From a virus: a stretch of 64,000 nt of DNA. Shown in pieces: positions 46,304 through 61,773 of the stretch (position 1 is its first letter; the number at the start of each line of letters is the position of its first letter). The notes beneath the pieces are model-generated. The model was not told the origin of the DNA. It made no database searches and saw only the letters and a program-made list of their open reading frames with translations. A program made the position numbers and the translations under genes. The DNA is taken from positions 1-64,000 of the IMG/VR virus record IMGVR_UViG_3300044653_000098, one strand, 5' to 3'.

Positions 46304-46813
46304 ATGCGCACTGACGACACAGATCCCGTGATGAAGCAGGCCCTCGATGCGGCCAAGACCCAGCTGAGGCAGCAGGTCCGCATCCGCGCTGCTGCGGAAA
46401 CCCGTATCGGGCAGCTTCAGGCTACGGTCGCCTCGCTGACCGCCGCGGTGCACGGCCAGAGGCCGCCGGGAACCGGGGAAGTGATCAAGGGGTTCCTGGA
46501 CCGCCTGCAGCCGGGAGAGGATATCGACGTTGCCGAGCTGGTCAGGTACGGGCGGTCCGTGAACTGGGTCTCGACCTCCCCGGAGGAGCGCACGGCGCTG
46601 ATCGGCCGGCTGTCCCGGTGGGCTCTGGAGGGCCGCGTTGCCCGGGCTGATAGCCACCGGGCCGGCCGGTACCGGAAGCTGACCGAGGAGGAGCAGGCTG
46701 CCTACGAGGCCGCGGAGGAGGAGCGCCTGCGGAACATGCCCGTGGTCACCCGCACCCGCGGCTCCCAGGGACGGCCGGGAGGCCGGTATCCCAGTAGACA
46801 CGTGTCAACCTGA
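46304..46813 (+). CDS. hypothetical protein (coiled coil + possible wHTH)
   Basis: 169 aa; its last codons overlap dyad copy 2. Confidence 0.55.
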   Translation: MRTDDTDPVMKQALDAAKTQLRQQVRIRAAAETRIGQLQATVASLTAAVHGQRPPGTGEVIKGFLDRLQPGEDIDVAELVRYGRSVNWVSTSPEERTALIGRLSRWALEGRVARADSHRAGRYRKLTEEEQAAYEAAEEERLRNMPVVTRTRGSQGRPGGRYPSRHVST

Positions 46814-46824
46814 TCCGCTAGAGT
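46793..46824 (+). promoter_or_regulatory. dyad copy 2; rightward promoter using the TAGACA arm
   Basis: AGTAGACACGTGTCAACC; TAGACA-18-TAGAGT; ATG 7 nt later (leaderless). Confidence 0.7.
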
Positions 46825-46831
46825 TCTCCCC

Positions 46832-47107
46832 ATGATGAATCTTCCGGTAGACGAGTTCTGCGATGGTTGCGGCCAGCCGGCTGGCCTGTGCGGTGGCGAG
46901 TGCAGCCCTGACCTCATCGAGTACACCCCCATAATCCGGTATGCCGACGAGGTTCTGCATCTGGTCAATACCGAAGGCCGGCCGGTGCTGCTCGATCGCC
47001 ATCCGTCCCCGCACGTGCGCGTGCCGGTCGGGCTCTTCGAGATCACCCGCCACGGGCCCAGGGTCCGCCGGACCCCGGTGCAGCCGCGGGAATGGTGGGA
47101 GGACTAG
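46832..47107 (+). CDS. CxxC hypothetical protein
   Basis: First ORF after the promoter. Confidence 0.55.
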   Translation: MMNLPVDEFCDGCGQPAGLCGGECSPDLIEYTPIIRYADEVLHLVNTEGRPVLLDRHPSPHVRVPVGLFEITRHGPRVRRTPVQPREWWED

Positions 47108-47438
47108 CACGCTACCCTGATCAGCTCCAGGTGGTCAGTCGGCGTTTCCTGTAATCCTCCCCACGCGCTCAGCCGTCCACCTTTCATCAGCATGCGCGCG
47201 TGGAGGTGGGGAGTGGTTGCCCGGTCCGTCCGCAAGATCGTCAAGACCCAGCGTGAGCTGAGGGAGGAATGCCTCGGCGCCGGGCACTGGGTCATCGAAG
47301 GTTACGACGTGCACCGGGCGACCGGCTCTGGCTCGGTGAAGCGGTGGCTCATAAACGATCCCCGCGGTAACAGGGTCGGCCAGCCGGCCACACTTGGACA
47401 GGCACGGCAAATGATCAGAGATCTGCTAGGGGAGTTAC

Positions 47439-47744
47439 GTGGTGTGGGCAGCGCTGACCATCTACAGCCTCATCGGCGGCACGATGGTGTTCTTTGTGTG
47501 GGCAGGGCTCACCGGCCAGCTGCCGTACCTGTTCGGCGCCAGCCCTGAACGCAGAGAGCAGCGCCGCCGCTACCGGCAGGTGATGCGCTGCCGCACCGTC
47601 CGGGCCCAGTCGGCCATGCTCCAGGAGGCGTGCCCGGAAGAGCACGGCAACGGCCATGTGGTGCTGTGGGCCGATCACAAGCCCTCCGCGGTCCGGCTCG
47701 ACCTGCTGTGGGGCCTGTTCACCTTCACCCGCGATCCAAGTTGA
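47439..47744 (+). CDS. membrane protein
   Basis: SD GGAG; N-terminal TM. Confidence 0.5.
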   Translation: MVWAALTIYSLIGGTMVFFVWAGLTGQLPYLFGASPERREQRRRYRQVMRCRTVRAQSAMLQEACPEEHGNGHVVLWADHKPSAVRLDLLWGLFTFTRDPS

Positions 47745-47770
47745 CACGTGTCTACCAGCTTCGGTAGTCT
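47739..47770 (+). promoter_or_regulatory. dyad/promoter copy 3
   Basis: AGTTGACACGTGTCTACC; TTGACA-18-TAGTCT. Confidence 0.8.
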
Positions 47771-47813
47771 GGTGCCCTGTTAAGAATCTGCTGGACGGTC
47801 TTTGGAGGGCGCC

Positions 47814-48092
47814 ATGCCACGTTGGCCAGACGATCCAACTGCGACACGTCCTCCCGGCATGTACCGCGATCCTGGGGAGCGGCGCGTGAGCGTTGCGCAG
47901 GCCAGGATCGCGCTGGCCCTGGAGAACCTTCAGGCCGAGCATGGCCTGACGACTATCGAGATGCTCCAGGCGATCACCTCCTGGCAGCAGACCGCCATCA
48001 AGTTCATGCTGCGGGCCGAGCGCGGGGCTCCGGGTGAGCCCGCGGAGGATCGTCTTATCGATCCTGAAGACGCCGTGAGCCCAGGGCTGTGA
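47814..48092 (+). CDS. hypothetical protein
   Basis: SD GGAGG. Confidence 0.6.
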   Translation: MPRWPDDPTATRPPGMYRDPGERRVSVAQARIALALENLQAEHGLTTIEMLQAITSWQQTAIKFMLRAERGAPGEPAEDRLIDPEDAVSPGL

Positions 48093-48274
48093 ACGGCCAC
48101 TGCCGGCAGCCGGAGTGCACGGCCACCTACGGCGCGCATAAGTGGGGCAAGATCCGGGCTCACAGTGAGGGCTGGTTCTTTCCCGATGACGCCGAGCCCG
48201 GTGGCTGGTGCCCGGATCACCTGCCCGAGTGGGTGCCGGACTGGCGCGCTCGCAAGTCGGCGGCCCGCGGATGA
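48089..48274 (+). CDS. small Cys/Trp-rich protein
   Basis: GTGA overlap; 'C...C...GW......WCPDH'. Confidence 0.55.
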   Translation: MNGHCRQPECTATYGAHKWGKIRAHSEGWFFPDDAEPGGWCPDHLPEWVPDWRARKSAARG

Positions 48275-48534
48275 ACCGGGTCCAGCTTGATCAGCAGGCT
48301 GAGCTTCTGGCCGAGGAGCTGTGGCGTGAGCTTGCCGGGCAGACGATGAAGAAATGGATGCTGCTCACGGGTGAGATGGTCGCTACCCCGGAGTGGGAGG
48401 CGTTCCGGGCCAAGGTCTTCGTCAGAGTAGAGAGCAGGATGAACAACTGGCTGCCCGCCGTCGAGGAGCTGCCCAATGGCCAGGCGCTGTCTGAGCCGGT
48501 CCCAGAGCGCCGCAGGCGCCGGGGGCGGATGTGA
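48271..48534 (+). CDS. hypothetical protein
   Basis: ATGA overlap. Confidence 0.55.
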   Translation: MNRVQLDQQAELLAEELWRELAGQTMKKWMLLTGEMVATPEWEAFRAKVFVRVESRMNNWLPAVEELPNGQALSEPVPERRRRRGRM

Positions 48535-48713
48535 CTAAGAGAGGCGCGTTCCCTGCGGGTAAGCACCAGGCTGCGCTCCGGCAGTCGGGGCGGTTCGTTG
48601 AGCACCCGGAAGACTGTGACTGCCGTCGGTGCAGGCGTCTGCGCAAGGCGTTCCTCCGGCGCTCTACGCCCCCCACAGACCCTCTGGGGCGCCCGATCGG
48701 CGGCCCTAGGTGA
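48531..48713 (+). CDS. small basic Cys-containing protein
   Basis: GTGA overlaps at both ends; 'HPEDCDCRRC'. Confidence 0.5.
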   Translation: MTKRGAFPAGKHQAALRQSGRFVEHPEDCDCRRCRRLRKAFLRRSTPPTDPLGRPIGGPR

Positions 48714-49030
48714 GCGTCTACCTCATCCACTTCGCCCGCCCGTTTGGCCCTGAGGGCGCCCCAGCGGGCAGCACGGCCCAGCACTACATCGGCAGCTCGC
48801 CCGAGTACCGGCTGAAGGCTCGCCTCCGCGAGGAGCTGACCGGCTGCGCGGCCGCCGCACGGCTCATGCAGCATGTGGTCGCCGCGGGTATCGCCTGTGA
48901 GGTCGTGCGGACATGGCCGGGCGGCCGCAAGCGGGAGCGCCAGCTCAAGACTCAGGGCAGCGCCCGCCGGCTGTGCCCGGCGTGCGGGGTCAGGCCCGGC
49001 AAGGGCTGGACAGTCAGGAGCGTGAAATGA
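48710..49030 (+). CDS. GIY-YIG-like endonuclease
   Basis: 'VYLIHF...HYIGS...ARL....G...ERQLK......CPAC'. Confidence 0.7.
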   Translation: MSVYLIHFARPFGPEGAPAGSTAQHYIGSSPEYRLKARLREELTGCAAAARLMQHVVAAGIACEVVRTWPGGRKRERQLKTQGSARRLCPACGVRPGKGWTVRSVK

Positions 49031-49167
49031 TCACTGTTCTCGTGGCGTGCGCGCTCGGGCTGGTCCTTGCCGGAGGCATCTTCTGGTTTGCGTGGTGGAC
49101 GACTAAGCCGCTCCGGGGCTACATGGTTACCCGCGGCTGGCCGGCCAACCGGGTGCGCCGCCCGTGA
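49027..49167 (+). CDS. small membrane protein
   Basis: SD AGGAG; N-terminal TM. Confidence 0.5.
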   Translation: MITVLVACALGLVLAGGIFWFAWWTTKPLRGYMVTRGWPANRVRRP

Positions 49168-49424
49168 GGTTCCTCGACACCAGCTGGCACGAGCGGGCCA
49201 AGTGCAAGGATGCTGACCCCAACCTGTTCTTCACCAAGGCGGGCCAGCACGCGGACGAGGCCAAGGCTCTGTGCGATGGCTGCCCGGTCAGGGAGCAGTG
49301 CCTGGAGGAAGCTCTGGGGATGTCTGCCACGTGTGACTTCGGGATCAGGGGCGGGCTGTCGCAGAAAGAGCGTCAGGCGATAAGAAAGGCCCGGCGCACG
49401 GCCGAGACCAGACTCTCAGCTTAA
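49164..49424 (+). CDS. whiB: WhiB-family transcription factor
   Basis: 'W...AKC...DP.LFF...AKALCDGCPVREQCL..AL.....FGIRGGLS..ER' with four Cys and a G(I/V)xGG turn (Arg in place of the usual Trp). Confidence 0.9.
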   Translation: MRFLDTSWHERAKCKDADPNLFFTKAGQHADEAKALCDGCPVREQCLEEALGMSATCDFGIRGGLSQKERQAIRKARRTAETRLSA

Positions 49425-49608
49425 CACTCAGGCAAGCGCAGGTCAGGGGCATAAATCTGTGGCCCGCCCGGCATAGCGCCCAAGCGGGCCACGAGTTTAG
49501 CGTGTGTGCTGTAGTCGATGGTGGCTGGGATCTGGTGCAGTTCCCACGTCGGTGCAGCCGAGGAGGTGAGTCAGGCGGGCAGTTTGGCCGCTGCCCGCCT
49601 GGCAAGCC

Positions 49609-50034
49609 CTACCAGATCTCCGGACCGGCCGGTGTCGCGGTCACCGTGATGAGCGCCATGTACTTCCCCTCCGAGACGTTCACGGTTCGCTTAATCGTGT
49701 AGTCGGTCGGGTAGCTCAGCTCGACCCCGGTGCCAAAGATCTCGAACGCCTGCTTGTGGGCGTAAGCCTGGATCGCCTCGTTGTCGTCCCCGTAGGCCCG
49801 GATCTCGGCGGAAGGGGCTAGGCGCTCGCGTGCCCGCACGTCCACCCGGGCGATGAAGCCCTGGCTGCGGTCCTCTCTGGAGACCGGGTTGGCTGAGTAG
49901 CCGGCGATCTCCAGCACCGTGCCGTGGCCGAAGAACTCCAGCGCCTCGTCCAGCGCGGCGTTCTCGATCTCGTGCGCTCCGGGTCCGCGGATGATGGTTT
50001 GGTAGATGCGCTCGTCCTTGGTGTCGTCGTTCAT
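49609..50034 (-). CDS. hypothetical protein (internal duplication)
   Basis: SD AGGAGGT; two 'A.E.FG.G..L' repeats. Confidence 0.6.
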   Translation of the reverse strand: MNDDTKDERIYQTIIRGPGAHEIENAALDEALEFFGHGTVLEIAGYSANPVSREDRSQGFIARVDVRARERLAPSAEIRAYGDDNEAIQAYAHKQAFEIFGTGVELSYPTDYTIKRTVNVSEGKYMALITVTATPAGPEIW

Positions 50035-50046
50035 GGGCGGTACCTC

Positions 50047-50661
50047 CTAGGTGGGCCGGAGCGGGTTCAGCTCGTCTTCCAGTCGGCCGACGAGCTTGTG
50101 CAGCTCGTCCAGCGTGAAACTCATCCGGTCGTCGTGGCGGTAGTCCCTCAGCACTTCGATGCCCAGCACTTCCAGGCGGGCTGAGAGGTCGTCGCGCTGG
50201 AGCTGGAGCCGGTTGCGTGCCGCGGTGGCTTCCTCCCGCTGGCGCCGGTCGTTGTCTTCCTGCCGGGCCATCTGCTGCATCACCTCGTCGTAGAGCCCGG
50301 TGACCGAGGCCATGCGGGTCAGCAGGGTGAGGTAGATCCCGGCGTCAGCGTGCTGCTGTGCCAGCCCCGTGGTGACCGCGGTCGGCTTGATCCTCATCAT
50401 CGTGGCGATCTGGTCCGGCAGGGCGTTCTGGCGCCCGATCAGCACCGGGTAGCCGACCGCGGGGGAGTAGGTGGGCCGCCCGGCTGCCGGCTTGGTGTAG
50501 CCTGCGTCGCCGGCCACCAGATATGCGGGATCGGAGGGCAGGTCGCCGCGCCATCTCTGGCGGTAGAGCGTGCTGGACAGAAACACCAGCGGCTGTGGGT
50601 GATTCCACGACCGGTTCTGGTATGCGTAGACGATGCCTAGTTTGATGTCCTGTTTCCTCAT
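50047..50661 (-). CDS. hypothetical protein
   Basis: SD GGAGG; C-terminal coiled coil. Confidence 0.6.
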   Translation of the reverse strand: MRKQDIKLGIVYAYQNRSWNHPQPLVFLSSTLYRQRWRGDLPSDPAYLVAGDAGYTKPAAGRPTYSPAVGYPVLIGRQNALPDQIATMMRIKPTAVTTGLAQQHADAGIYLTLLTRMASVTGLYDEVMQQMARQEDNDRRQREEATAARNRLQLQRDDLSARLEVLGIEVLRDYRHDDRMSFTLDELHKLVGRLEDELNPLRPT

Positions 50662-51108
50662 CTATGCCTCCTCCTGGAGCTTGGCCAGCCCGGCGTCGGT
50701 GAGCCCGTACTGGAGCCGGTGCATTGTGGGTGTTCCGAAAGACCGCACCGTGCTGTCGAGCAGGCCGAGGCGCACCAGCCTCTGGGCCAAGCCCGCCATT
50801 CTGGCCGGGGTGCCCTCCAGCGCTTCCGCGAGCATGACGTGTGTGGTGGCACCCTCGTGCACGGCGTTGAGCACCCACCACAGGTTGTCGGCCATCCGCC
50901 TGCCCCATCTCACGTGCAGCAGCGCTGCGCAGATGTCGCGCTGGTCTGTGCGAGCCTGCTCCAGCACCTGCTGCAGTGTGTCGATGTTCCGGATCTTGAT
51001 CATCCCGATCTCGCCGGCCGCGAGGATCCACACACCGCCCTGGTCGTCCACACCGATTTGTGCTTCCGACTCGGGTACGTCGTAGAGGATCTTCATGCCC
51101 TGGTCCAT
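50662..51108 (-). CDS. protein with C-terminal MarR-like winged helix
   Basis: 'LAEALE.TP..MAG..QRLVRLGLL...YGLTDAG...L'. Confidence 0.6.
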   Translation of the reverse strand: MDQGMKILYDVPESEAQIGVDDQGGVWILAAGEIGMIKIRNIDTLQQVLEQARTDQRDICAALLHVRWGRRMADNLWWVLNAVHEGATTHVMLAEALEGTPARMAGLAQRLVRLGLLDSTVRSFGTPTMHRLQYGLTDAGLAKLQEEA

Positions 51109-51113
51109 AGTGA

Positions 51114-51461
51114 TCAGCTCCTGCTTCGTTCGATCGCGTCCGCGGCAAGTTCCATGATCCAGTCGGGGGCCGGGATGCCATAGAGAGACTTAGTGCTTGG
51201 GCTGTAGCTGAGGGACATCCACTGCTCGATCGGCCTGCCGGTGCCCCAGCGGCCCTTCACGGCTACGCGGGTGATGTCTGGCTTTTCTCCCACCTTGTAG
51301 CGCACGGCAACCCGCACCTGAGTGACCACGATCTCCGAGGTCTTCCGCTTGGCCCCTTCCGGGTAGCGGTGGACAAGGATCGTCGGCCAGCCCATGCGGC
51401 GTGGTCGTGCCCACACGTACTGGTCATCGTGGTAGCGGGTGAGGTCCGGCTCATTACCCAT
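51114..51461 (-). CDS. hypothetical protein
   Basis: ATG preceded by a degenerate leader 'GCCAAAGAACGGAGCC'. Confidence 0.55.
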   Translation of the reverse strand: MGNEPDLTRYHDDQYVWARPRRMGWPTILVHRYPEGAKRKTSEIVVTQVRVAVRYKVGEKPDITRVAVKGRWGTGRPIEQWMSLSYSPSTKSLYGIPAPDWIMELAADAIERSRS

Positions 51462-51493
51462 ATCCTGGCTCCGTTCTTTGGCCAACTGCTCAT

Positions 51494-51539
51494 ACATTAG
51501 CACGTCTGGTTGACACGTGTCTACCGACTCTGCTAGGTT
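51494..51539. promoter_or_regulatory. dyad copy 4 (51508-51525); bidirectional promoter
   Basis: Rightward TTGACA-18-TAGGTT; leftward TAGACA-18-TAATGT; flanked by divergent genes. Confidence 0.75.
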
Positions 51540-51574
51540 TCTCTCATGACCACAGCCCAGTAAACGGAGGCCAG

Positions 51575-52516
51575 ATGGAAACCTACACGTTCGCCGACCC
51601 TGAGCTGTCCCCTCTGCCCATGAAGTGGGTCTGGGACGGTTACATCCCGCGGTACTGCATGACGGAGGGGTACGGCGAGGGCGGGACGATGAAGGGCCTC
51701 GGCATTCAGAGCATCATCGCCCTGATCACCCTCGGTGCGGACATGCCGGACGGCAGCCTCAACGGGTTCGGTGGTCCGCGCACCGTGATCAGCATCACGG
51801 GCGAGGATCTGCTGCGGCAGGGCATGGCCTGGCGCTACCGCGCGGCCGGCGCCGACACCCGCAATATCGTGGATCTCAGCAAGGACGAGAACGGCCGGCC
51901 CTTCAAGCTGAACGACGCGGGGCTCGCGCGCATCCGCGAGGAGATCGCCAAGATCAACTCTCACGAGGGCAAGTACCGGCATATGCCGGACTACGGCTTC
52001 CTGTACCTCGACCCCATGATGAGCATCGCGCCCCGCAGCGTCACCCAGAACACCACGTTCCGTGCGGTGCTGCTCGAACCTCTCGACGCGCTGTGCGCCG
52101 AGGAGGAGCTTGGCAAGGACGGCACGGGCTGCTTCCTCATGAACCACTCGACCAAGGACAAGAAGGTCGTGGCCGGCTCGGCCGCCGCAGTGCAGGGCCC
52201 GCGCATGGTTCTCGGGTTCCGCCAGAGCGACCGCAACCCGCTGTGGCGTGAGCTGTACCGGTACAAGACCAATATCACCGAGAACACCCCGGCTCCCGTG
52301 CCGTACATGGGGGAGGGCAAGGACACCAGTATCCGCGTGCGGTGGATGACGGACTCCTGGGAGCAGCGCCGCAGCGGGTCCGGTGTCCTGAGCCGGTACG
52401 GCTCGCGCGCCTCGGAGGCCATGGCTCCCGCGCCAGTCCCGGCCCCGTACGCGGCGCCCGTTCCGCAGCCGGCCAGCGTTGGCGAGATGTGGAAGAATCT
52501 CCAGTCCAGCATGTGA
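51575..52516 (+). CDS. AAA_25/RepA-like (RecA-fold) ATPase/helicase domain protein
   Basis: 'KWVWDGYIP', Walker A-like 'GEGGTMKG', 'ITGED', Walker B 'LYLDP', 'NHSTK', 'AGSAA...PR'. Confidence 0.7.
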   Translation: METYTFADPELSPLPMKWVWDGYIPRYCMTEGYGEGGTMKGLGIQSIIALITLGADMPDGSLNGFGGPRTVISITGEDLLRQGMAWRYRAAGADTRNIVDLSKDENGRPFKLNDAGLARIREEIAKINSHEGKYRHMPDYGFLYLDPMMSIAPRSVTQNTTFRAVLLEPLDALCAEEELGKDGTGCFLMNHSTKDKKVVAGSAAAVQGPRMVLGFRQSDRNPLWRELYRYKTNITENTPAPVPYMGEGKDTSIRVRWMTDSWEQRRSGSGVLSRYGSRASEAMAPAPVPAPYAAPVPQPASVGEMWKNLQSSM

Positions 52517-52536
52517 TGTAGCCGCGGAGGCAGTCA

Positions 52537-52811
52537 TGGAACGCATGGAGCTTGCCGACGCACGGTCCGGGCCCGCCCTGCAGGAGGCTGTGCGTCTTGC
52601 GCGCGACAAGCAGCGCACGACCGAGATCATCGAGGATGGCATGGTGATTGCGGTCATCAGTCCCGCGCAGAGCGCGGAGCCGGGCCACGCTGCCCGCGGC
52701 CAGGCACCGGATGAGATCGAGCAGGGCATTGCCTCAGCCTCCCGGCTGAGCGCTGAGCTTGGCCTGGAGCTGACCCGTGTCCGCGATCTCGTTGCACAGC
52801 AGAGAGGGTAG
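52537..52811 (+). CDS. hypothetical protein (N-terminus resembles Phd/YefM antitoxin DNA-binding strand pattern)
   Basis: SD GGAGG; 'MELADAR...L...V.......TEII..G...AVI.P'. Confidence 0.45.
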
Positions 52812-52818
52812 CTCACCT

Positions 52819-52876
52819 GGTTGACACGTGTCTACCGCACCATTAATATAGATCTATCAGCCCAGCAAACGGAGGC
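52819..52876 (+). promoter_or_regulatory. dyad/promoter copy 5 + conserved leader
   Basis: TTGACA-17-TAATAT; AGCCCAGCAAACGGAGGC at 52859. Confidence 0.8.
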
Positions 52877-52880
52877 GATT

Positions 52881-53229
52881 ATGTGGAGACAGCGTAAGCC
52901 TGAGACCCAGCGCCAGCCGCATCCCGACCCGTCTATTGAGGTCGAGCTGCAGCGGATCATCTCGCTTCAGCGCGCGGCAGCCCGCAAAGAGACTGAGCTG
53001 GATCAGCTCCAGGAGCTTACCGGCAGGCTGCGGAAGGCTATGCAGGCCGAGGCTAGTGCTGTTACCAGCAACGGAGAGCGCCGCAAGCAGATCGACCGGG
53101 CATGTCGGCCGGACCGGTGAGCTGGAGGCGGAGGTCGTTCGGCTCCATGACGAGATAGCCAACCGCCTCACTCCTATGCGCGAGGAAGACCGCGCGTACC
53201 TGTACGACTCCACCAAACAGAGAGGATGA
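52881..53229 (+). pseudogene. coiled-coil protein apparently split by a 1-nt insertion near 53109
   Basis: Frame 1 stops at 53120; the helical 'RTGELEAEVVRLHDEIANRL' continues in the +1 frame to 53229. Confidence 0.45.
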
Positions 53230-53235
53230 TGCGCC

Positions 53236-53784
53236 ATGAAAGGTATCTGGACCAGAAACCACTTCGACGTGGTTGCCGCGGTGCTGCAGCGTGCTGTCGA
53301 CACGGCTGACCACATCGAGGGGCCGCAGGGGAGCAGTGCGCACCGCGCGCTGGAGTTCGTGTGCGAGGCATTCGTCGCGGTATTCAATGCGGACAGCGAG
53401 CGCTTCCAGCCCGACCGGTTCCGCCAGGCGGCCGGCCTTGACCCCAAGGGCACCACGGTGCAGCTCGATGAGCGGGAGATGTTCTTCTACGAGCACGCTA
53501 ACTGGGCCGGGAAGTTCGAGGGGGAGTCCGCGGCGCACGCCCGCGGCCGCACCGCGATCTTGCTGGCCGACGCGGAGCGGTGCCTGGAGAAGACACCGGA
53601 CACCCGGATCGAGTGGGAGCCTGACCCGGCAGGCAGGGTTGGCACGGATTTCTGGGGTGCCTACCTGTACCAGGGCGGCAGGTTCCTCGGCTCGGATGAG
53701 GTGGAGCTGACCGGCGACCCGGAGAAGGACGCTGTTCGCAAGAGAGTCACCACTGCGATCCTCGCGCTGGAGTACCTTGCCTGA
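53236..53784 (+). CDS. hypothetical protein
   Basis: SD GAGG; 'F..D..RF..DRF..A' motif, similar to the motif in the 62676 gene. Confidence 0.65.
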   Translation: MKGIWTRNHFDVVAAVLQRAVDTADHIEGPQGSSAHRALEFVCEAFVAVFNADSERFQPDRFRQAAGLDPKGTTVQLDEREMFFYEHANWAGKFEGESAAHARGRTAILLADAERCLEKTPDTRIEWEPDPAGRVGTDFWGAYLYQGGRFLGSDEVELTGDPEKDAVRKRVTTAILALEYLA

Positions 53785-53807
53785 CAGGAGGTGAGTGGAC
53801 TCCACCT

Positions 53808-53847: not shown

Positions 53848-53877
53848 GTGTGAGGGTACTCCGTAAGGCCGTAGATA

Positions 53878-53939
53878 GGTTGACACGTGTCTACCGTACC
53901 ACTACCATAGGGGTAGATGAAAGCCCACCGAACGGAGGC
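53878..53939 (+). promoter_or_regulatory. dyad/promoter copy 6 + conserved leader
   Basis: TTGACA-17-TACCAT; AGCCCACCGAACGGAGGC at 53922. Confidence 0.8.
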
Positions 53940-53943: not shown

Positions 53944-54240
53944 ATGACAGCCATACGGGTCACTGTGGAGGCGATGAAGCATCCCGAGGTGCGGGAAACA
54001 CTGGAGGTCGATACTGATCTGCCGCTCCCGCTCACTGCGGACGGGGTAGCGCAGCTCTGGAACTCCCTGAACGGCCAGAGCAAGGTCACGGCCGCCGCGG
54101 GGTCGTTCTGGATTCGCCACGTGCGCGACGAGCACGGCGGTTGTGTGGAGTGCGGCAAGCTCGTCTCCGGCCGGTTCGGCCATGGCCCGTCGTGCTCGGT
54201 GCCGACCGGCGGCGAGCCTACCCCGGTGCTGTTCTCGTGA
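53944..54240 (+). CDS. hypothetical protein with CxxC
   Basis: ATG directly after the leader motif. Confidence 0.65.
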   Translation: MTAIRVTVEAMKHPEVRETLEVDTDLPLPLTADGVAQLWNSLNGQSKVTAAAGSFWIRHVRDEHGGCVECGKLVSGRFGHGPSCSVPTGGEPTPVLFS

Positions 54241-54404
54241 GGCCGCACCGCTGCTCGCGCCGGCTGTGCTTCCGCATCGCCCACGTCTGGGTGGGTGTCC
54301 CCGGCTACTGGCCAGCCCCGTCGACCGTCGGCCGGTGGAGCTGCCGCCGGCATGCCAAGTACATCCAGAGCGCGATGAACGTGGCGCTCCGGTTCCCCGC
54401 CTAG
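54237..54404 (+). CDS. small Cys-containing protein
   Basis: GTGA overlap. Confidence 0.45.
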   Translation: MRPHRCSRRLCFRIAHVWVGVPGYWPAPSTVGRWSCRRHAKYIQSAMNVALRFPA

Positions 54405-54457
54405 GTGGGCTGGCCACGGTACTCCGATTATCCGTATGAGCAGAGAGGAGGCAGTTC

Positions 54458-54673
54458 ATGATCATTCGTACGGCTGGTGAGCCCGACCTAGGCCGGGCCG
54501 AGATCCTGCACGAGCTTGCGTGGGCTGCCTACGATGCCTCTATCGAGGAAGTAGCAGACGGCGCCTCCCTCGCTGAGGTAGAGACTGCAGCCCGGCGTGT
54601 CGACACGTCCGCGGTCAACCTCGCGGACACCTGCCAGGCGGCCGGCCTCACGCCGGTTGCACAGCCCGCCTAG
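54458..54673 (+). CDS. hypothetical protein
   Basis: SD GAGGAGG. Confidence 0.55.
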   Translation: MIIRTAGEPDLGRAEILHELAWAAYDASIEEVADGASLAEVETAARRVDTSAVNLADTCQAAGLTPVAQPA

Positions 54674-54750
54674 CGGGTACCTTGATTGAGCCCGGTAAAA
54701 ACTAACTCAAGCCTGCTTGAGCATGTCTCTGCAAAGCCGGGCACAGCGCG

Positions 54751-54779
54751 CGGGCCCGGGATTAGCTACCCCGGGCCCG
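54751..54779. terminator. hairpin between convergent genes
   Basis: CGGGCCCGGG / CCCGGGCCCG. Confidence 0.6.
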
Positions 54780-54791
54780 TTCGTTTCTCTC

Positions 54792-55100: not shown

Positions 55101-55103
55101 CGC

Positions 55104-55637: not shown

Positions 55638-55687
55638 TTCCGTTCTGGTTTGGTCTTGGGGGTCTCCGGGTCGGCCGAGAGGTGCGC

Positions 55688-56179
55688 TCAGCGCACCCAG
55701 TAGTCGACTCCGCCGAAGCTGACCGTGGAGTAGTCGATCTTGAGTTCGTCGGCCGCCGCTTCCCAGTCGATGCAGTTGACCGGCCAGTTGGCGTCCTTGT
55801 CGATCGCGCCTATGTCGTCGGCAAGCTGTTCCGCGTACTCCTCGAAGTAGCTGTCGCGGATGAGCGTGGCCCCGTGCTTCCAGTCGCCCGCGTTGCTCTC
55901 TCCGTCGCTGGCAAGCTCGCGGAGCTGCTCCAGTTCTTCCGTCTGGTCCTCGTCCAGCCCGACCCCGTACTCCTCTGCCTGCTCGCGCAGGCTGGCCAGC
56001 TCGGCCGCCTCGTCGTCGGACACCCCTGGGTCTGTCTCCAGTGCGCGCAGTTCCGCGAGTCGGCGCTCTTGCGCTTCCAGCTCGGACAGCTCTTCGATCC
56101 GCGCGATCACGTCGCGGCTGTCAATCAGGTCCTCGTCATTGGTGATCGGTTCGGTAGCTGTGATCTCTGCCATGTCCAT
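55688..56179 (-). CDS. very acidic ArdA-like antirestriction / DNA-mimic protein
   Basis: 'FEEYAEQLADDIG...IDWEAAADELKIDY' resembles the ArdA C-terminal domain; strongly D/E-rich. Confidence 0.6.
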   Translation of the reverse strand: MDMAEITATEPITNDEDLIDSRDVIARIEELSELEAQERRLAELRALETDPGVSDDEAAELASLREQAEEYGVGLDEDQTEELEQLRELASDGESNAGDWKHGATLIRDSYFEEYAEQLADDIGAIDKDANWPVNCIDWEAAADELKIDYSTVSFGGVDYWVR

Positions 56180-56180
56180 C

Positions 56181-56237
56181 GCCTCCGTTTACTGGGCTGT
56201 GCTCACAGCTTAGCTGACAGGTAGACACGTGTCAACC
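56181..56237 (-). promoter_or_regulatory. dyad/promoter copy 7 + conserved leader
   Basis: TTGACA-17-TAAGCT; AGCCCAGTAAACGGAGGC. Confidence 0.8.
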
Positions 56238-56272
56238 AGTTAGGGAACTCCGGGAGAGGGCATAATAGAGCC

Positions 56273-56437
56273 GTGACCATTCTGGTGCTCAGCCTCCTGG
56301 CCCTGGCCTACCTGTGCCGCCGGCCGCTCGGCGCGTGGATGCTGAGCAAGCTCACGCGCCTGGCGGTCAAGCTCCGCCCGTTCGGCATCGCCTATGTGCT
56401 GATGCTCGCGTTTTTCTTTGGCGTCCTGCACGTCTGA
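56273..56437 (+). CDS. 54-aa hydrophobic membrane protein (not in ORF track)
   Basis: MTILVLSLLALAYLCRRPLGAWMLSKLTRLAVKLRPFGIAYVLMLAFFFGVLHV; CATAAT ends 6 nt upstream; ends at a hairpin. Confidence 0.55.
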   Translation: MTILVLSLLALAYLCRRPLGAWMLSKLTRLAVKLRPFGIAYVLMLAFFFGVLHV

Positions 56438-56469
56438 GGGCCCGCCCAGACGCATCTAGGCGGGCCCTT
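56437..56469. terminator. hairpin between convergent genes
   Basis: AGGGCCCGCC / GGCGGGCCCT. Confidence 0.6.
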
Positions 56470-56483
56470 CGTGCGTTCGTGCG

Positions 56484-57158
56484 CTACTCCTCGTCGTCCT
56501 CGTAGAGCTTGACCTGTGCGCGCTGCTCTCCGTCGAAGAACTCGCGCTCTCCGTAGCTGCTGAGGATCAGGCCGAGAGTGCCGTAGTCGGCCACCACGGT
56601 TCCCTCGGTCCACAGCACCGGCTCCTGAGAGGGGTCCGAGGTGAACGTCACGGTGTCGTCCTCGGAGAACTGGACACCCTCCAGCGGCTTCATCTTGAGC
56701 GCGTCGGGCCCGTCCTCCTGGAACGCGTAGACCTCCTCCCCAATGTTGTCCGAGGTGCCGCGCTCGTCCTGGTACCACGCGTTGGGGTAGTACCCGGATT
56801 CCACCATGAGCTTGGCCAGCTCGTAGGTGGCAATCTCGCGCGTGGGGTAGCCCGGCTCCTGCCAGTTGGCCGGCCGGTGCGTGCTCTCCATGACCACGCG
56901 GTAGGCGCCGCGGTCCTCGGTTACGTAGCCATCGAACTCGTCGGGCAGGTCTTGCCAGCCGTCGACCAGTTCTTTGGCCTCTTCTGCGGCGTCCTGGAGC
57001 GCGCCGAGTAGTGCGTCCGCGTCGCTGGAGAACCGGCCGCAGTTGATCTCCACGTCTCCGTCCTCGTCTTCCACGTCGATCGTGAGGATGATGCCGCCGT
57101 CCTCGTCGTCCTGCCGGACGATCTTGAAAGAGGGGTTTCCGTGCAGTGTGAGCTTCAT
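56484..57158 (-). CDS. very acidic hypothetical protein
   Basis: D/E-rich 224 aa; sole gene of its cassette. Confidence 0.7.
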   Translation of the reverse strand: MKLTLHGNPSFKIVRQDDEDGGIILTIDVEDEDGDVEINCGRFSSDADALLGALQDAAEEAKELVDGWQDLPDEFDGYVTEDRGAYRVVMESTHRPANWQEPGYPTREIATYELAKLMVESGYYPNAWYQDERGTSDNIGEEVYAFQEDGPDALKMKPLEGVQFSEDDTVTFTSDPSQEPVLWTEGTVVADYGTLGLILSSYGEREFFDGEQRAQVKLYEDDEE

Positions 57159-57162
57159 GTGC

Positions 57163-57219
57163 GCCTCCGTTTACTGGGCTATGGCAGCAGCTTAGCTGAT
57201 AGGTAGACACGTGTCAACC
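57163..57219 (-). promoter_or_regulatory. dyad/promoter copy 8 + conserved leader
   Basis: TTGACA-17-TAAGCT; near-identical to copy 7 over about 57 nt. Confidence 0.8.
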
Positions 57220-57220
57220 A

Positions 57221-57251
57221 AAAGGCCCCCGGAAGTTAGATCCGGGGGCCT
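57221..57251 (-). terminator. intrinsic terminator
   Basis: AGGCCCCCGGA / TCCGGGGGCCT with a T run on the - strand. Confidence 0.7.
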
Positions 57252-57267
57252 CCGTAAGGCCGGAGCG

Positions 57268-57663
57268 CTAGGAGACCAGCGCGAGGAATGGCGCTGTGGA
57301 CTTCGGCCGGCGGTATGGCGCGTACTGCCGTACCTGCCTGATGAAGTCAGCGCACCCCTTGTACTGGCCGATGATCGCATCCGGGTCGATCTTGAAGAGG
57401 TGCGCGATCATCCAGCCGTAGTCATCCCACGACGCGGCGCGCGCCTCGTCATCCAGCGGATAGCTGCCGATCGTGCGGTGTGCGGTCGGCCTCGTGCCGT
57501 TGTGGCTGTAGGCATAGAACTGCACGCCATGGCTGTAGCCGGCCAGCCGCGGGCGGAAGTCCTGAACATCGTCGGGCCAGATGTCGGCCCCGTTCAGCAG
57601 ACGCGCCAGGCGGAAAGCCTCGCGCACGTCGTCTGAGGTGATTTTGGTGCTGTAGACCTTCAT
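57268..57663 (-). CDS. hypothetical protein
   Basis: 'AASWDDYGW.IA.LF..DP.A..G.Y' phage early-protein-like pattern. Confidence 0.7.
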   Translation of the reverse strand: MKVYSTKITSDDVREAFRLARLLNGADIWPDDVQDFRPRLAGYSHGVQFYAYSHNGTRPTAHRTIGSYPLDDEARAASWDDYGWMIAHLFKIDPDAIIGQYKGCADFIRQVRQYAPYRRPKSTAPFLALVS

Positions 57664-57670
57664 GGGCTCG

Positions 57671-57734
57671 GCCTCCGTTTAGTGGGCTTGGCTTCCATCA
57701 CCTATCTAAGCACATTGGTAGACACGTGTCAACC
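57671..57734 (-). promoter_or_regulatory. dyad/promoter copy 9 + conserved leader
   Basis: TTGACA-18-TAGATA (weak -10); AGCCCACTAAACGGAGGC. Confidence 0.75.
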
Positions 57735-57814
57735 ACCTAGGGAACTCCGTAAGGCCGGAGGCAGCAAAGACCGCCCGCACCGGCAGGCACGAGCGGTCTC
57801 TAGCCTCGATGCAG

Positions 57815-58111
57815 TTATTCCGCGCGCTCGTGCACAGCCTTGGTCATGTCCGGCTCCGCGTAGGTGCCTTCGGGCAGCCCGCCCGACCGGCGCCCGGTCT
57901 TGTAGGACGCCACGTCATCCGCGTGCACGTAGAAGACCAGCGTGCCGTGCTCCGGGAAGCTAGAGCGCACGTACAGCGCCGGAGCGTCCAGCTCAGCCCC
58001 GTGTGCGTCCGTGTCCATGGCCAGAACTTCCGGCCAGCCTGTCTCCTCCGGCTGAGTCAGCTCCAGCCCATCCGCGGGACCTTCGAGCAATTCCGCAAAC
58101 ATGTCATCCAT
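57815..58111 (-). CDS. acidic hypothetical protein
   Basis: SD GGAG; followed by a hairpin at about 57768-57800. Confidence 0.55.
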   Translation of the reverse strand: MDDMFAELLEGPADGLELTQPEETGWPEVLAMDTDAHGAELDAPALYVRSSFPEHGTLVFYVHADDVASYKTGRRSGGLPEGTYAEPDMTKAVHERAE

Positions 58112-58137
58112 GTGATCAGCTCCATTCTCCGATGCAT

Positions 58138-58326
58138 CTATTTTGGCAACAGGCCAAGCTCGCGCATGTCCTCCATCACCACCCCGAACGGGCTGGAGCC
58201 GTCCGGGATCGCTGCCACGCGCCTGGCGAGATCAGTCAGGTACAGCCGCACCGCAAGCGCGTAGGTCTCAGGCGTGCCATGGAATTGCCAGGGCACGCGC
58301 ACGGCCGGCTCATCCGTCGTTGCCAT
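58138..58326 (-). CDS. hypothetical protein
   Basis: SD GAGGAGG. Confidence 0.55.
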   Translation of the reverse strand: MATTDEPAVRVPWQFHGTPETYALAVRLYLTDLARRVAAIPDGSSPFGVVMEDMRELGLLPK

Positions 58327-58669
58327 GCGCCTCCTCGTTCGTCCAGCGCGGCACGTGGGGCCCGTTGCCGGCCGGATAGCAGTGATCATCCCCGGACGTG
58401 TCGAATACGTGTCCGTCGCTCGCTAGGTGCACGTAGTCACCACAGCCGCGACAGGTCACACCAGGGAGGTGCGGGGATACCTGAATCAGGAACTGTGAGC
58501 CGGCCGCGTCGGTGTAGATGAAGGACGCGCCCGTGTTCCATTCCTCCGGCTCAGAGCATCCGCTCAGGATGAGATCTCCGCTCGACAGCTCTTGCGCTAT
58601 GTAGATCGCACGCTCCGGCTTGGCCTGTGCGTAGAACTCATCCCGCAAAGGATCATGCTGTGTCGTCAT
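58310..58669 (-). CDS. hypothetical protein with CxxC
   Basis: Coupled ORF. Confidence 0.55.
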   Translation of the reverse strand: MTTQHDPLRDEFYAQAKPERAIYIAQELSSGDLILSGCSEPEEWNTGASFIYTDAAGSQFLIQVSPHLPGVTCRGCGDYVHLASDGHVFDTSGDDHCYPAGNGPHVPRWTNEEAHGNDG

Positions 58670-58688
58670 CTTGCTTCCGATGCACTTC

Positions 58689-59054
58689 TCAGAAAAGCTT
58701 GGCGGGCCGGTGCAGGTTGCGGCACAGCCCGCAGCGGAACACTCCGGTTGCATAGGGCATGCCGTTGTCATGGCTGGAGTACTGCGGCTCTTGGTGCCCG
58801 GGCGTGGCGTGGCACCGCGGGCAGTAGACACCCCCGTCCGTGTCGCCTACGGGGTTGCCGGTGCCGTCACAGATCACGCCGTGCTCGTTCAGCCGGTAGG
58901 TCAGCACGAGCGCGCCGTCGGCCCCCTCTTGCAAGATCACGCCTGGCCGCTGCCACACGTGCACGAGCATGCGCAGCGCTGCACGCGGGGAGGGCAGGCC
59001 GGCCGCGGTGCGCAGCGTGGGGGAATCGTTGCGCGCTACCGCGTAGCAGATCAT
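58689..59054 (-). CDS. hypothetical protein with two CxxC
   Basis: ATGA overlap. Confidence 0.55.
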   Translation of the reverse strand: MICYAVARNDSPTLRTAAGLPSPRAALRMLVHVWQRPGVILQEGADGALVLTYRLNEHGVICDGTGNPVGDTDGGVYCPRCHATPGHQEPQYSSHDNGMPYATGVFRCGLCRNLHRPAKLF

Positions 59055-59458
59055 GCGGACACCGCGCGGAAGATCTCAGCGCGCTGAGCGTCCGTCCAGT
59101 CCCCTACCACGTAGACGCTTACCTCTTCCTTTTCCGTGGTGTAGTTGTCCGGCAGGCTGCAGCTCAGCCACGCATGCGCGCTCAGCTCCGCGGGCACGGG
59201 GCTTACGCTTGGCTCGTAGGCTCCGGTGCGCTGGATACGCTCCACAGCCCACGCCACGCGCGCCGCGCTCTCGCGCTTGGACGCTCCGAGGTAGCGGCGC
59301 ACGCTGTACCACGGAAGTGGCTCCGGCCCGTCAAACTCAGGATCGTAAGCTTCCGTGTCGGTGCCATGGTCCCGGATCTCGCGGGAATCGCCTTCCATCC
59401 ATTCCCCCTCTTCTGAGTAGGGGTCAATGGTGCGCCGGTAGATCTGAATTTCGTACAT
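59051..59458 (-). CDS. hypothetical protein
   Basis: ATG directly after the leader motif. Confidence 0.65.
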   Translation of the reverse strand: MYEIQIYRRTIDPYSEEGEWMEGDSREIRDHGTDTEAYDPEFDGPEPLPWYSVRRYLGASKRESAARVAWAVERIQRTGAYEPSVSPVPAELSAHAWLSCSLPDNYTTEKEEVSVYVVGDWTDAQRAEIFRAVSA

Positions 59459-59462
59459 GCTG

Positions 59463-59522
59463 GCCTCCGTTTGTGGGCTTGCTGTGTCCTCATTGTCTCA
59501 TGCCGGTAGACACGTGTCAACC
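59463..59522 (-). promoter_or_regulatory. dyad/promoter copy 10 + conserved leader
   Basis: TTGACA-17-GACAAT; AGCCCACAAACGGAGGC. Confidence 0.75.
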
Positions 59523-59527
59523 ACAGC

Positions 59528-59563
59528 ACGGAGCCCCGCACCTCTGCAGGCACGGGGCTCCGT
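59528..59563 (-). terminator. terminator-like hairpin
   Basis: ACGGAGCCCCG / CGGGGCTCCGT. Confidence 0.6.
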
Positions 59564-59580
59564 ACGGGCTTAGGCGGCCC

Positions 59581-60810
59581 CTAGTCGCGGCCGGCTGTGC
59601 CCGCGGGGAGGTCATCCCACGCGGTGTGCTGAATCCTCCGGCCATCCTCGCTGATCTCATACAGCACGGTGCAGCTCCGGGCCTTGACCTTGTTGCCGAC
59701 CGGAACCATGCTCGCGTAGTCGACCGCACAGGCAAGGAAGCGCACGCCCCGCACATACTCGCGCGTGTCCTCTGCGGTAGCGCAGAAGTGCAGACCGTGT
59801 CCGCAGTGCGGCTCCGGGGTGTAGTCCTCCGCTGTGACCGTGGAGCCAATCTCATACCGGATATCGCCATGGCCGACGGGCGAGCTCAGGTCAGCTAGCA
59901 CAGCCTTGACCAGTGTCACGGTCTTGCCGTCATCGCTGAGCGTCAGGCCACGCTCAGCGAGCCAGCGTGGTCTGGCGTTGCGCGCGTCACGCTTGGCTCT
60001 CCGCTGCGCAGCCTTGAGCCGGCGGACAGCCTCCGCACGCTCGCGCGCTTCGGTCTCCAGCCGTGCTGCCTTCTCTTCTGGGGTCTCGTACAGCCGCTTG
60101 GCGTTCGGATCGATCACCATGCCGGAACTGTCCACGCGGATACCGTCATAGAAGATCGCCGGCCGTTGCTGTGAGCCGTAGTCGGCAACCTTCGAGCCGT
60201 GGCAGTTGTGGCACGTGGCCTGATGCTGGCCGGTCACACCCATGCCGCGGTGCCTGTGCCATTGGCCAACCACGCGTACGGTTTCTGGCTGATCACGGAG
60301 AGGCCAGCCATTGCGCTGTAGTGCGGTTGGCACAGGCTCATTCCAGCGCACTGCAAAGTCATATGACCATTCAGAGCATGGGTAGGTCCGGCCCTCTATT
60401 CCCCGGTAGTGGTTGGTAACCGAGTAGTCGGCCGGGTGGTAGTAGCTGACCGTGCCCCAATCGTTTACGGTGACCAGTCCCGTGCCCTTGCACGTGCGGC
60501 ACTTCTGGAGCTTGGCCGGCATGTGGGGGTCTGAGCTGTGCCACACAGCCCAGACGCCACGGTGTGAGTACACCCGCGCGGGCCCGTAGCCATTGATCCT
60601 GTCTTTGGTGGTGACGGTCTCCCACCCGCCAGTGTTCAGGGTGTACGTGCCGTCTGCATGGATGGCCACCACGTCTGTGTTGTGGAGCCGGACAGCGTAG
60701 TTGCTACCTCTCTCCACTAGATAAGTGTTGTTCTGCAGCTTGCGCCGTGGTCCGTATCCGCGGTCCTGAGCACGCGCCATCATGGTCTGTGCGTCTTGGT
60801 AGCTGAGCAT
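59581..60810 (-). CDS. multidomain early protein (DnaJ-type CxxCxGxG insert; C-terminal 'YEIG...CGHGLHFC' domain)
   Basis: 'CRTCKGTG' and 'CHNCHGS' pair; sole gene of its cassette. Confidence 0.7.
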   Translation of the reverse strand: MLSYQDAQTMMARAQDRGYGPRRKLQNNTYLVERGSNYAVRLHNTDVVAIHADGTYTLNTGGWETVTTKDRINGYGPARVYSHRGVWAVWHSSDPHMPAKLQKCRTCKGTGLVTVNDWGTVSYYHPADYSVTNHYRGIEGRTYPCSEWSYDFAVRWNEPVPTALQRNGWPLRDQPETVRVVGQWHRHRGMGVTGQHQATCHNCHGSKVADYGSQQRPAIFYDGIRVDSSGMVIDPNAKRLYETPEEKAARLETEARERAEAVRRLKAAQRRAKRDARNARPRWLAERGLTLSDDGKTVTLVKAVLADLSSPVGHGDIRYEIGSTVTAEDYTPEPHCGHGLHFCATAEDTREYVRGVRFLACAVDYASMVPVGNKVKARSCTVLYEISEDGRRIQHTAWDDLPAGTAGRD

Positions 60811-60817
60811 TGGTGCC

Positions 60818-60881
60818 GCCTCCGTTTGTGGGCTTGACCTTGTGACCTCACCTTAGCATGGCTGGTAGACACGTGTCAACT
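60818..60881 (-). promoter_or_regulatory. dyad/promoter copy 11 + conserved leader
   Basis: TTGACA-18-TAAGGT; AGCCCACAAACGGAGGC. Confidence 0.8.
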
Positions 60882-60882
60882 A

Positions 60883-60920
60883 GAAACCTCCCGTACCCTG
60901 TGGCGGATACGGGAGGTTTC
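60883..60920 (-). terminator. terminator-like hairpin
   Basis: GAAACCTCCCGTA / TACGGGAGGTTTC. Confidence 0.7.
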
Positions 60921-60937
60921 CGGGGGTGAGCTGAGAG

Positions 60938-61474
60938 CTAGTCCGGCTCACCAAGCGGGCCGGTCATGCTCAGTATGTTTGTGGTGATCTCCTGCCGCAC
61001 GCTGGCCGGTATCGCTGCGGCCGACACTAGCGCGCTGACAACCTCGCGCCATTCCGCGCGGGTGAGGTCAGCACCGAGGATGTCATCATCCGCGATTCCG
61101 AACGTGTCAGACTCCCACACGTACAGCCGGCAGTTGTCGGCTACGTAGTACGGGAAGTGTTCCGCAACCAGCCGCTCTATCGTCGCGTCCCACGCTGCAG
61201 CATCGCCGCGGTAGAGCGGCGCACTGGCACGCTTGTTATCGAACGTGGCAGCGAGGTTATACATGGTGTCCGCCTCCGCGCGGATCTTCCATGCGTCCTC
61301 ATACTGGCCGGCGTCCGCGTAGCTGACCGCGGTGTCTCCTGCCTGATCGGCCGACTCGCTCAGCATGCGGCGCACCTCGTCGGCAACGTCGCGCCACGTG
61401 GTGGCCACGCTGAAATTGTCGTCGCTAGCTTCGGGCCCGTATCCGGGCAGTCCGTAGGCAAGGATCATGCGCAT
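60938..61474 (-). CDS. acidic hypothetical protein
   Basis: SD GGAGGT. Confidence 0.65.
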   Translation of the reverse strand: MRMILAYGLPGYGPEASDDNFSVATTWRDVADEVRRMLSESADQAGDTAVSYADAGQYEDAWKIRAEADTMYNLAATFDNKRASAPLYRGDAAAWDATIERLVAEHFPYYVADNCRLYVWESDTFGIADDDILGADLTRAEWREVVSALVSAAAIPASVRQEITTNILSMTGPLGEPD

Positions 61475-61479
61475 GGCGG

Positions 61480-61662
61480 TTACCTCCCCTGCCTGATCAG
61501 GTATCCGAAGCCGGCCGCGTCGCGCTGGTCAGCGCGGAATGCGGCACGCTGCAGACTGGCACGCCGGCGGGCACGCTGCATGCGGCCGGCCTTGACGGCC
61601 AGGCGTTCAGCCAGCGGCGCACGCGGAGCCGCGTGGCGTGGGGTGGGGTTGGTGTCGTTCAT
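61480..61662 (-). CDS. small Arg-rich protein
   Basis: ATG after the leader motif. Confidence 0.6.
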   Translation of the reverse strand: MNDTNPTPRHAAPRAPLAERLAVKAGRMQRARRRASLQRAAFRADQRDAAGFGYLIRQGR

Positions 61663-61669
61663 TGTTCTA

Positions 61670-61773
61670 GCCTCCGTTTGGTGGGCTTGCTTACAGGTCA
61701 ATCCTCGCACGGACGGTAGACACGTGTCAACCTCTCGTGCTAGTCTGATCTCATCAGCCCACCAAACGGAGGC
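61670..61773. promoter_or_regulatory. dyad copy 12 (61715-61732); bidirectional promoter with the leader motif on both sides
   Basis: Rightward TAGACA-18-TAGTCT; leftward TTGACA-18-GAGGAT; AGCCCACCAAACGGAGGC at 61756 (+) and 61670-61687 (-). Confidence 0.8.

Follow-up and report, generated by a model that had tools for sequence, protein, structure and literature searches.

LexA of the bacterial host reportedly acts directly on promoters of CTXphi, of coliphage 186 (tum) and of the Bacillus phage GIL01, phages that are temperate or live in a carrier state and in which one or few sites provide the link to the SOS response. In Tn10 TetR/tetO and EilR/eilO, a palindrome for a ligand-sensing dimer lies over the −35 element and spacer of a strong host-polymerase promoter, and 'Jungle Express' is an engineered version built on phage immediate-early promoters (PMC6127294). 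The L5/Bxb1 stoperators and the P1 C1 operators are short sites present in many copies across a phage genome, some of them overlapping an early promoter; stoperators are asymmetric 13-bp sequences, located for the most part within transcribed regions, and their binding protein is the immunity repressor encoded by the phage itself. Cluster O mycobacteriophages carry 17-bp dyad repeats in >30 copies per genome, with invariant inverted arms and no known binder, which are separate from predicted SigA promoters and in many cases lie inside genes (PMC4351075). In T4-type promoter-stem-loop (PeSL) cassettes, a terminator-like hairpin and then an early promoter surround small orphan genes in a region of high variability. 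Here we describe a 16-base near-palindrome, GTTGACACGTGTCTAC (the dyad), that recurs at gene boundaries in the first 64 kb (the window, 64,000 nucleotides) of the 141,724-bp virus record IMGVR_UViG_3300044653_000098.

The dyad resembles each of these systems in part. Unlike the cluster O repeats, it contains the −35 element, and an L5-type stoperator system was rejected because the sites are dyads found at promoters only and no integrase, resolvase or Cro/CI-type helix-turn-helix domain (HTH_3) was found among the domains encoded by the phage. Compared with the PeSL cassettes, the sequences are unrelated, and there is neither an excess of breakpoints at the units nor any moved cassette; a preliminary description of the window had likewise stated that the repeat is neither a stoperator nor a PeSL. 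The likeness to the LexA-controlled phages lies in the proposal that a host repressor would use copies of its chromosomal site in phage promoters, with the differences that sites lie in every recognizable promoter, that the candidate is of the TetR type and that the phage has no detected integrase. In contrast to TetR/tetO and EilR/eilO, the arrangement is natural and present in 15–17 copies in one virulent-type phage, and the candidate regulator gene is chromosomal, its binding to the phage sites being putative.

The dyad and its counterpart in bacterial genomes

The window contains 12 exact copies of the 16-mer, starting at 9062, 46794, 47740, 51509, 52820, 53879, 56221, 57203, 57718, 59506, 60865 and 61716, compared with a mean of 0.01 in shuffled sequences. 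A search of the whole genome yielded 15, the other three being at 64045, 64698 and 134994, and 13 of the 15 fall within 46.8–64.7 kb. Two more copies, at 87319 and 119460, carry one mismatch each, a central change, and the latter precedes a tRNA array. The preliminary description had reported 12 invariant copies in both orientations and at gene boundaries, with fixed flanking base classes, and this was borne out for every copy, gene boundaries being taken from rough gene calls by third-position G+C: the base before the 16-mer is always a purine (R) and the base after it is a pyrimidine (Y) in 17 of the 18 sites with up to two mismatches. The seventh and eighth copies (56221 and 57203), described as near-identical over 57 nt, are similar to a lesser degree, at ~86% over that length. 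The units at 51509 and 134994 have ~20 nt in common beyond the dyad. A copy with two mismatches (21977–21992, minus strand) was also observed in a gap among the structural genes.

Searching one genome per species (185,579 species) gave 70 exact matches to the 16-mer, 34 of which lie within ~100 bp of homologues (47–85% identity) of one TetR-family regulator. The genera with the 16-mer beside this regulator are Kitasatospora and Streptomyces, which together account for most of the species, and Streptacidiphilus, Lentzea, Micromonospora, Nocardia and Goodfellowiella. The regulator gene matches Pfam TetR_N, the divergent gene encodes a membrane protein matching Pfam DUF4345, and the gap between them usually holds two inverted 16-mer sites 8–31 bp apart, where the phage copies are single. 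The bacterial loci of 34 species thus have the form of a TetR operator, a dyad of 15–20 bp, usually in two copies, between the regulator and the divergent gene. In five such genomes, the site (≤2 mismatches) occurs essentially at the TetR locus only. Within one genus, 22 of 61 genomes have the site, each at one locus and most with one or two copies, compared with 0 for the control; its density there is ~0.2 per Mb, versus ~120 per Mb in the phage.

The likeness between bacterial and phage sites extends to detail. The T/A asymmetry of the site and the flanking R(−1) and Y(+17) are common to both, and variation among the host sites falls mainly on the four bases at the centre, the part in which the phage variants also differ. 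Of the host loci, 18 have a TAGCNT hexamer 19 bp past the TTGACA arm in the site nearer the regulator gene, with the second site coming next, indicating that the host DUF4345 promoter has the same construction, with the −35 element inside the operator. It is a new observation that the phage 16-mer and the paired inverted site of the bacterial TetR/DUF4345 locus are exactly the same sequence, asymmetry and R/Y flanks included. Because of this identity, the host protein is the best candidate for binding the dyad. In the phage, six-frame translation gave no match to TetR_N and tblastn gave no match to the regulator, so the host would have to supply the regulator.

The closest solved relatives of the regulator are distant. 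The target bound by EilR, a solved TetR protein, is a palindrome that shares the 10-bp core, and this EilR site, engineered into phage early promoters, gave a tight, working switch (PMC6127294). The TetR gene with a divergent DUF4345 gene and clear paired operator-like sites is kept across several actinomycete genera (e.g. L249:2659-3817). No description of the TetR/DUF4345 locus was found in the literature searched, and none of the dyad motif by full-text literature search.

Promoter anatomy and conservation of the dyad

The TTGACA arm (−35) is exact in all 17 copies, and the other arm, TAGACA, matches it at five of six positions. As the preliminary description had proposed, the TTGACA arm is paired with a −10 element: a TANNNT hexamer follows it at 17–18 bp in 11 copies. 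In five places, the TAGACA arm is likewise followed by a good TANNNT after 18 bp, a leader and a gene. In four forward directions, the −10 is a near-match instead (GANNAT at 59506, 61716 and 64698; TAGATA at 57718); 46794 and 64045 have no forward −10, and the TAGACA side alone is used. Use in both directions is predicted for 51509, 61716 and 64698. The units thus have the features of promoters of the housekeeping sigma factor (sigma-70/HrdB type), a −35 near TTGACA and TANNNT 16–18 bp downstream. Over the whole genome and both strands, all 11 occurrences of TTGACN-(16–18 nt)-TANNNT are dyad copies; therefore, the dyads are the only recognizable housekeeping-type promoters of the phage. The units of the window, with the 18-bp dyad including its flanking bases, are as follows.

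9061–9078, plus strand: dyad promoter, TTGACA rightwards, 18 bp, TACCGT; strong hairpin just upstream, at ~9017–9050; small genes from 9296
46793–46810, plus strand: dyad, TAGACA arm rightwards, 18 bp, TAGAGT, ATG at 46832; left-facing TTGACA without a −10
47739–47756, plus strand: dyad promoter, 18 bp, TAGTCT; rightward operon 47814–49424, ending in a WhiB-like gene
51508–51525, two-way dyad, rightwards: TTGACA, 18 bp, TAGGTT, leader; genes 51575–52811, the first of them an AAA_25 ATPase gene
51508–51525, two-way dyad, leftwards: TAGACA, 18 bp, TAATGT; genes from 51461 down to 49609, including 50662–51108
52819–52836, plus strand: dyad promoter, 17 bp, TAATAT; leader 52861–52875; genes 52881–53784
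53878–53895, plus strand: dyad promoter, 17 bp, TACCAT; genes 53944–54673
56220–56237, minus strand: dyad promoter, 17 bp, TAAGCT; leader 56182–56196; three leftward genes from 56173 down to 54792
57202–57219, minus strand: dyad promoter, 17 bp, TAAGCT; leader 57164–57178; one gene, 57158–56484
~57224–57250: terminator-like hairpin beside the 57202 dyad, z = −6.0
57717–57734, minus strand: dyad promoter, 18 bp, TAGATA; leader 57672–57686; one gene, 57663–57268; upstream hairpin, z = −2.5
59505–59522, minus strand: dyad promoter, 17 bp, GACAAT; five leftward genes from 59458 down to 57815
~59529–59562: hairpin beside the 59505 dyad, z = −6.0
60864–60881, minus strand: dyad promoter, 18 bp, TAAGGT; one gene, 60810–59581 (DUF7666)
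~60883–60920: hairpin beside the 60864 dyad, z = −6.2
61715–61732, two-way dyad, leftwards: TTGACA, 18 bp, GAGGAT; leader 61671–61685; genes 61662–60938
61715–61732, two-way dyad, rightwards: TAGACA, 18 bp, TAGTCT; leader 61758–61772; ATG at 61781

A close relative, the virus record G001 (132.5 kb), aligns collinearly with this phage, the nucleotide identity being 80–96%. All 17 sites have orthologues in it, and 0 of 272 dyad positions are changed, compared with 65–88% identity in the ungapped flanks, showing purifying selection on the site. The 16-mer also occurs, in the same promoter context, on short metagenome contigs of relatives that are only ~72% identical in nucleotide sequence and have other leaders. 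The dyad stays whole whichever arm is in use. Since all 16 bases are kept with either arm in use, which is more than recognition by sigma region 4 requires, the implication is that the sequence has a second reader; in this respect, the earlier suggestion that conservation exceeds the needs of RNA polymerase and implies a dimeric protein holds. The dyad is thus very probably a promoter together with a site for a dimeric DNA-binding protein. Relative to its orthologue at 83228 in G001, the 46794 dyad has its asymmetry flipped, and this dyad is an exact boundary of the homology between the two phages. A variant of full symmetry, in which both arms are TAGACA, stands at 103084 in G001; its counterpart in this phage (~66727) has decayed by two further changes.

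The promoter evidence also bears on whether the operator half has any role, as the repeat could be a strong promoter only, a captured host DUF4345 promoter that was copied and kept uniform by copy-correction, with the operator half idle. The matching construction of the host promoter would suit this explanation, as would the likeness beyond the dyad between 51509 and 134994 and between 56221 and 57203, which points to duplication. Between phages, however, the −10, spacer and leader diverge and the 16 bases never do, whereas gene conversion would make the flanks uniform too, and the dyad is whole where the weaker arm alone is used (46794, 64045). Furthermore, in actinobacterial promoters the −10 rather than the −35 holds most of the information, which also counts against a promoter without an operator. 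We regard this explanation as improbable.

It is highly improbable that another host factor recognizes the second half-site, whether WhiA, acting with the phage WhiB, or PafBC, which reads a GTC triplet near −26. The dyad does contain two inverted GACAC pentamers, the WhiA motif, which WhiA reads as sigma region 4 reads the −35 (PMC10243135), the phage encodes a WhiB-like protein, and the promoters with an 18-bp spacer place a GTC 12 nt ahead of the −10, like the PafBC consensus (PMC8635444). WhiA sites, however, sit upstream of the −35 and not over it (PMC10243135), and PafBC promoters have no −35 and carry GG after the GTC (PMC8635444), so a PafBC promoter was rejected despite the fitting GTC spacing of the 18-bp-spacer units, in which a perfect −35 is present and the GG is absent. 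Neither factor needs a dyad of 16–18 bp or explains the match to the TetR locus. A ParB parS site was also rejected, with agreement at only the central 7 of 14 positions as judged by eye against the 14–16-bp parS consensus centred on CACGTG.

Three complete relatives at 52–58% terminase identity (G005, G006 and G007) lack the dyad. De novo word counts identified CTTGACTCAAGTCAAG as the top repeat of G005, with 19 copies plus variants, each preceded by a hairpin and followed by TANNNT and a different conserved leader; in G006, TTGAC-N4-GTCAG occurs ~19 times, and in G007 these counts gave no clear repeat. The leader of G005 and G006 differs from that of this phage, with the core GGGCAGGCA and without a canonical ribosome site. 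G005, G006 and this phage share a plan in which two inverted pentamers resembling TTGAC are separated by 4 bp, the details being specific to each lineage.

Cassettes of orphan genes and the phage that carries them

Most units share a conserved leader, AGCCCAnnAAACGGAGGC, 5–8 nt ahead of the ATG, confirming that the leader noted earlier before the start codon is real. It is ~18 nt long, reaching well past the GGAGG ribosome site, and may provide a second, translation-level control. In viral contigs, the leader motif gave chance matches only, apart from G001. The conserved leaders, including those of the units above, are at the following positions.

51556–51570, 52861–52875, 56182–56196 and 57164–57178: conserved leaders
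57672–57686, 61671–61685 and 61758–61772: conserved leaders, continued

At 46832 and at genome position 135031, the ATG lies just ~6–7 nt past the −10, and the mRNAs of these two units are probably leaderless. Terminators were judged by hairpin energies, an E. coli-style scan being unsuited to this G+C content. The layout given in the preliminary description, with one to five genes per unit, was confirmed; its terminator hairpin between units was recovered in part, a strong hairpin (z of −2.5 or lower) lying immediately upstream in 6 of 20 unit directions. The ~30 cassette proteins gave almost no matches to Pfam and PHROGs, nearly all being orphans. Together, these results support the view of the region as orphan-gene cassettes that are insulated by terminators and arranged in an array.

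Relative to G001, no part of the genome varies more than the cassette region, a pattern that could suggest that the repeats are mainly a recombination scaffold, like the T4-type promoter-stem-loop units, through which cassettes are gained, lost or inverted. Consistent with such a role, breaks fall exactly at the dyad or the leader end at 46793, 47757, 52875, 59460 and 61754, the first gene of the 52819 unit being missing in G001 with the break at the end of its leader; furthermore, the asymmetry of one orthologous dyad is reversed and homology ends within that dyad, and the symmetric variant with both arms TAGACA exists in G001. Overall, 7 of the 29 indel or replacement breakpoints between the two cassette regions lie within 15 bp of a unit, which exceeds the value for random positions (P = 0.002) but matches the 23% of gene ends that lie near units (P = 0.53). 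In addition, no cassette has moved or been inverted between the two phages, the order being fully collinear. Breakpoints being no commoner at units than at other gene ends, with none of the cassettes moved, the shuffling role put forward earlier is neither shown nor excluded, and we consider a repeat that serves mainly as a scaffold quite improbable.

Two phage proteins had been put forward as winged-helix candidates for binding the dyad.

11480–11779, plus strand: 99-aa orphan, the earlier candidate binder, with a weak MarR-like fold
50662–51108, minus strand: 148-aa orphan, the earlier second candidate, with three homologues, all in the close clade

The structure model of the 99-aa protein gave weak MarR-type structural matches only (E ~4e-3), and the protein was rejected as the shared binder because it has no homologue in G001, which keeps an identical dyad. 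For the 148-aa protein, the secondary structure ends in helix-helix-hairpin, there is no Pfam or PHROG match and the low-confidence model (predicted local distance difference test, pLDDT, 42) is unusable, leaving the claim that it is the binder unsupported. A dimeric regulator encoded by the phage, this protein or another orphan early protein, could in principle shut off or time the early promoters in a regulon owned by the phage. The 148-aa gene lies in the operon predicted to be fired from the 51509 dyad, the protein occurs only in the close clade with this dyad, its predicted C-terminal secondary structure is in winged-helix order, and lineage-specific palindromes in distant relatives are expected if operator and regulator co-evolve. 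Yet at the start of the presumed recognition helix, the six residues all differ in a 57%-identical homologue, whereas the dyad is invariant wherever seen; a pair owned by the phage leaves the exact identity with the host locus, the asymmetry and the flanks unexplained; and the phage encodes no TetR_N or HTH_3 domain. Such a regulator therefore seems rather unlikely.

The source of the sequence is an uncultured ~142-kb soil phage of actinobacteria. Its genome has 66.8% G+C and ~30 tRNA genes, and two of its genes bear on its transcription and its host.

49164–49424, plus strand: WhiB-like gene (Pfam Whib, 73 bits), the last gene of the operon of the 47740 dyad
Genome 80099–80746 (L043:16099-16746): 215-aa protein with weak, collinear matches to sigma-70 regions 2, 3 and 4

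The WhiB-like protein indicates an actinobacterial host, and the match in operator sequence points to a narrower range of likely hosts for this uncultured phage group. The 215-aa sigma-like protein is kept at 48–54% identity in the distant relatives G005–G007 and probably serves the phage as a sigma factor for later genes. At the DNA level, none of the isolated phages resembles this one. In tblastn searches against isolated phages, the AAA ATPase gave no match, and the DNA polymerase and a 661-aa phosphatase-like protein gave remote matches only (~22–33% identity). Metagenomic contigs of 120–155 kb encode hundreds of relatives of the terminase. In one relative with a 99% identical terminase (139-kb contig, P0002), the terminase contains an intein with an HNH endonuclease, which is absent from the terminase of this phage.

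A possible host-controlled switch for early genes

The above results led us to consider the dyad as a promoter of the host housekeeping polymerase fused to a host-type TetR operator on which a host repressor acts, a reading for which we see the chances as evenly balanced. Host RNA polymerase would read TTGACA or TAGACA plus the TANNNT 17–18 bp further on, and the transcript would comprise the short leader, conserved and bearing a GGAGG ribosome site, followed by one to five orphan genes; where units stand in tandem, it would be ended by a hairpin just ahead of the next promoter. The predicted operator covers roughly −37 to −20, the −35 hexamer lying inside its 18 bp. The host TetR repressor, a ligand-sensing dimer, would occupy the phage promoters and block RNA polymerase, the block lasting until the repressor is released or outnumbered, and the start of the phage program would thereby depend on a host signal. 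As far as sequence comparison can indicate, the host protein may bind these sites, binding may repress, and the cassette genes may be early genes, which the phage probably ties to the host regulator. A more far-reaching version is tentative and, in our view, somewhat doubtful: a virulent-type phage would put all its host-polymerase promoters under a chromosomal TetR operator of a Kitasatospora or Streptomyces host and stay silent until a metabolite or stress signal, or until the repressor is outnumbered, with related lineages using other host-type palindromes.

Several points weigh against the proposed fusion of promoter and host operator. The operator of the regulator is assigned from position and conservation, and possession of the regulator by the host of this phage is a presumption. 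A cognate regulator gene lies beside the bacterial site and not beside the phage sites, and a phage protein that was not recognized as a regulator could bind the same site. There is no obvious benefit to the phage from repression by its host. The TTGACA arm and the dyad symmetry leave few free positions, making a chance match unlikely but possible. Finally, the more distant relatives bear other palindromes, and that of G005 was not above the control in 301 Streptomycetaceae genomes (7 one-mismatch matches versus 7); one of its matches is conserved in three genomes and does not adjoin a regulator gene.

If the link to the host fails, a clean but ordinary promoter-operator regulon of a phage remains. 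A promoter fused to an operator is textbook knowledge; a lytic-type phage with a small-molecule sensor of its host as the master switch of all its recognizable promoters is not. If the proposed reading is correct, the dyad would be a compact, naturally optimized promoter-operator part for Streptomyces genetics, and the uncharacterized TetR/DUF4345 locus, common in antibiotic-producing actinomycetes, would gain its first function and operator. The phage would then represent a concrete, testable case of a virus reading the physiology of its host through the host's own regulator.

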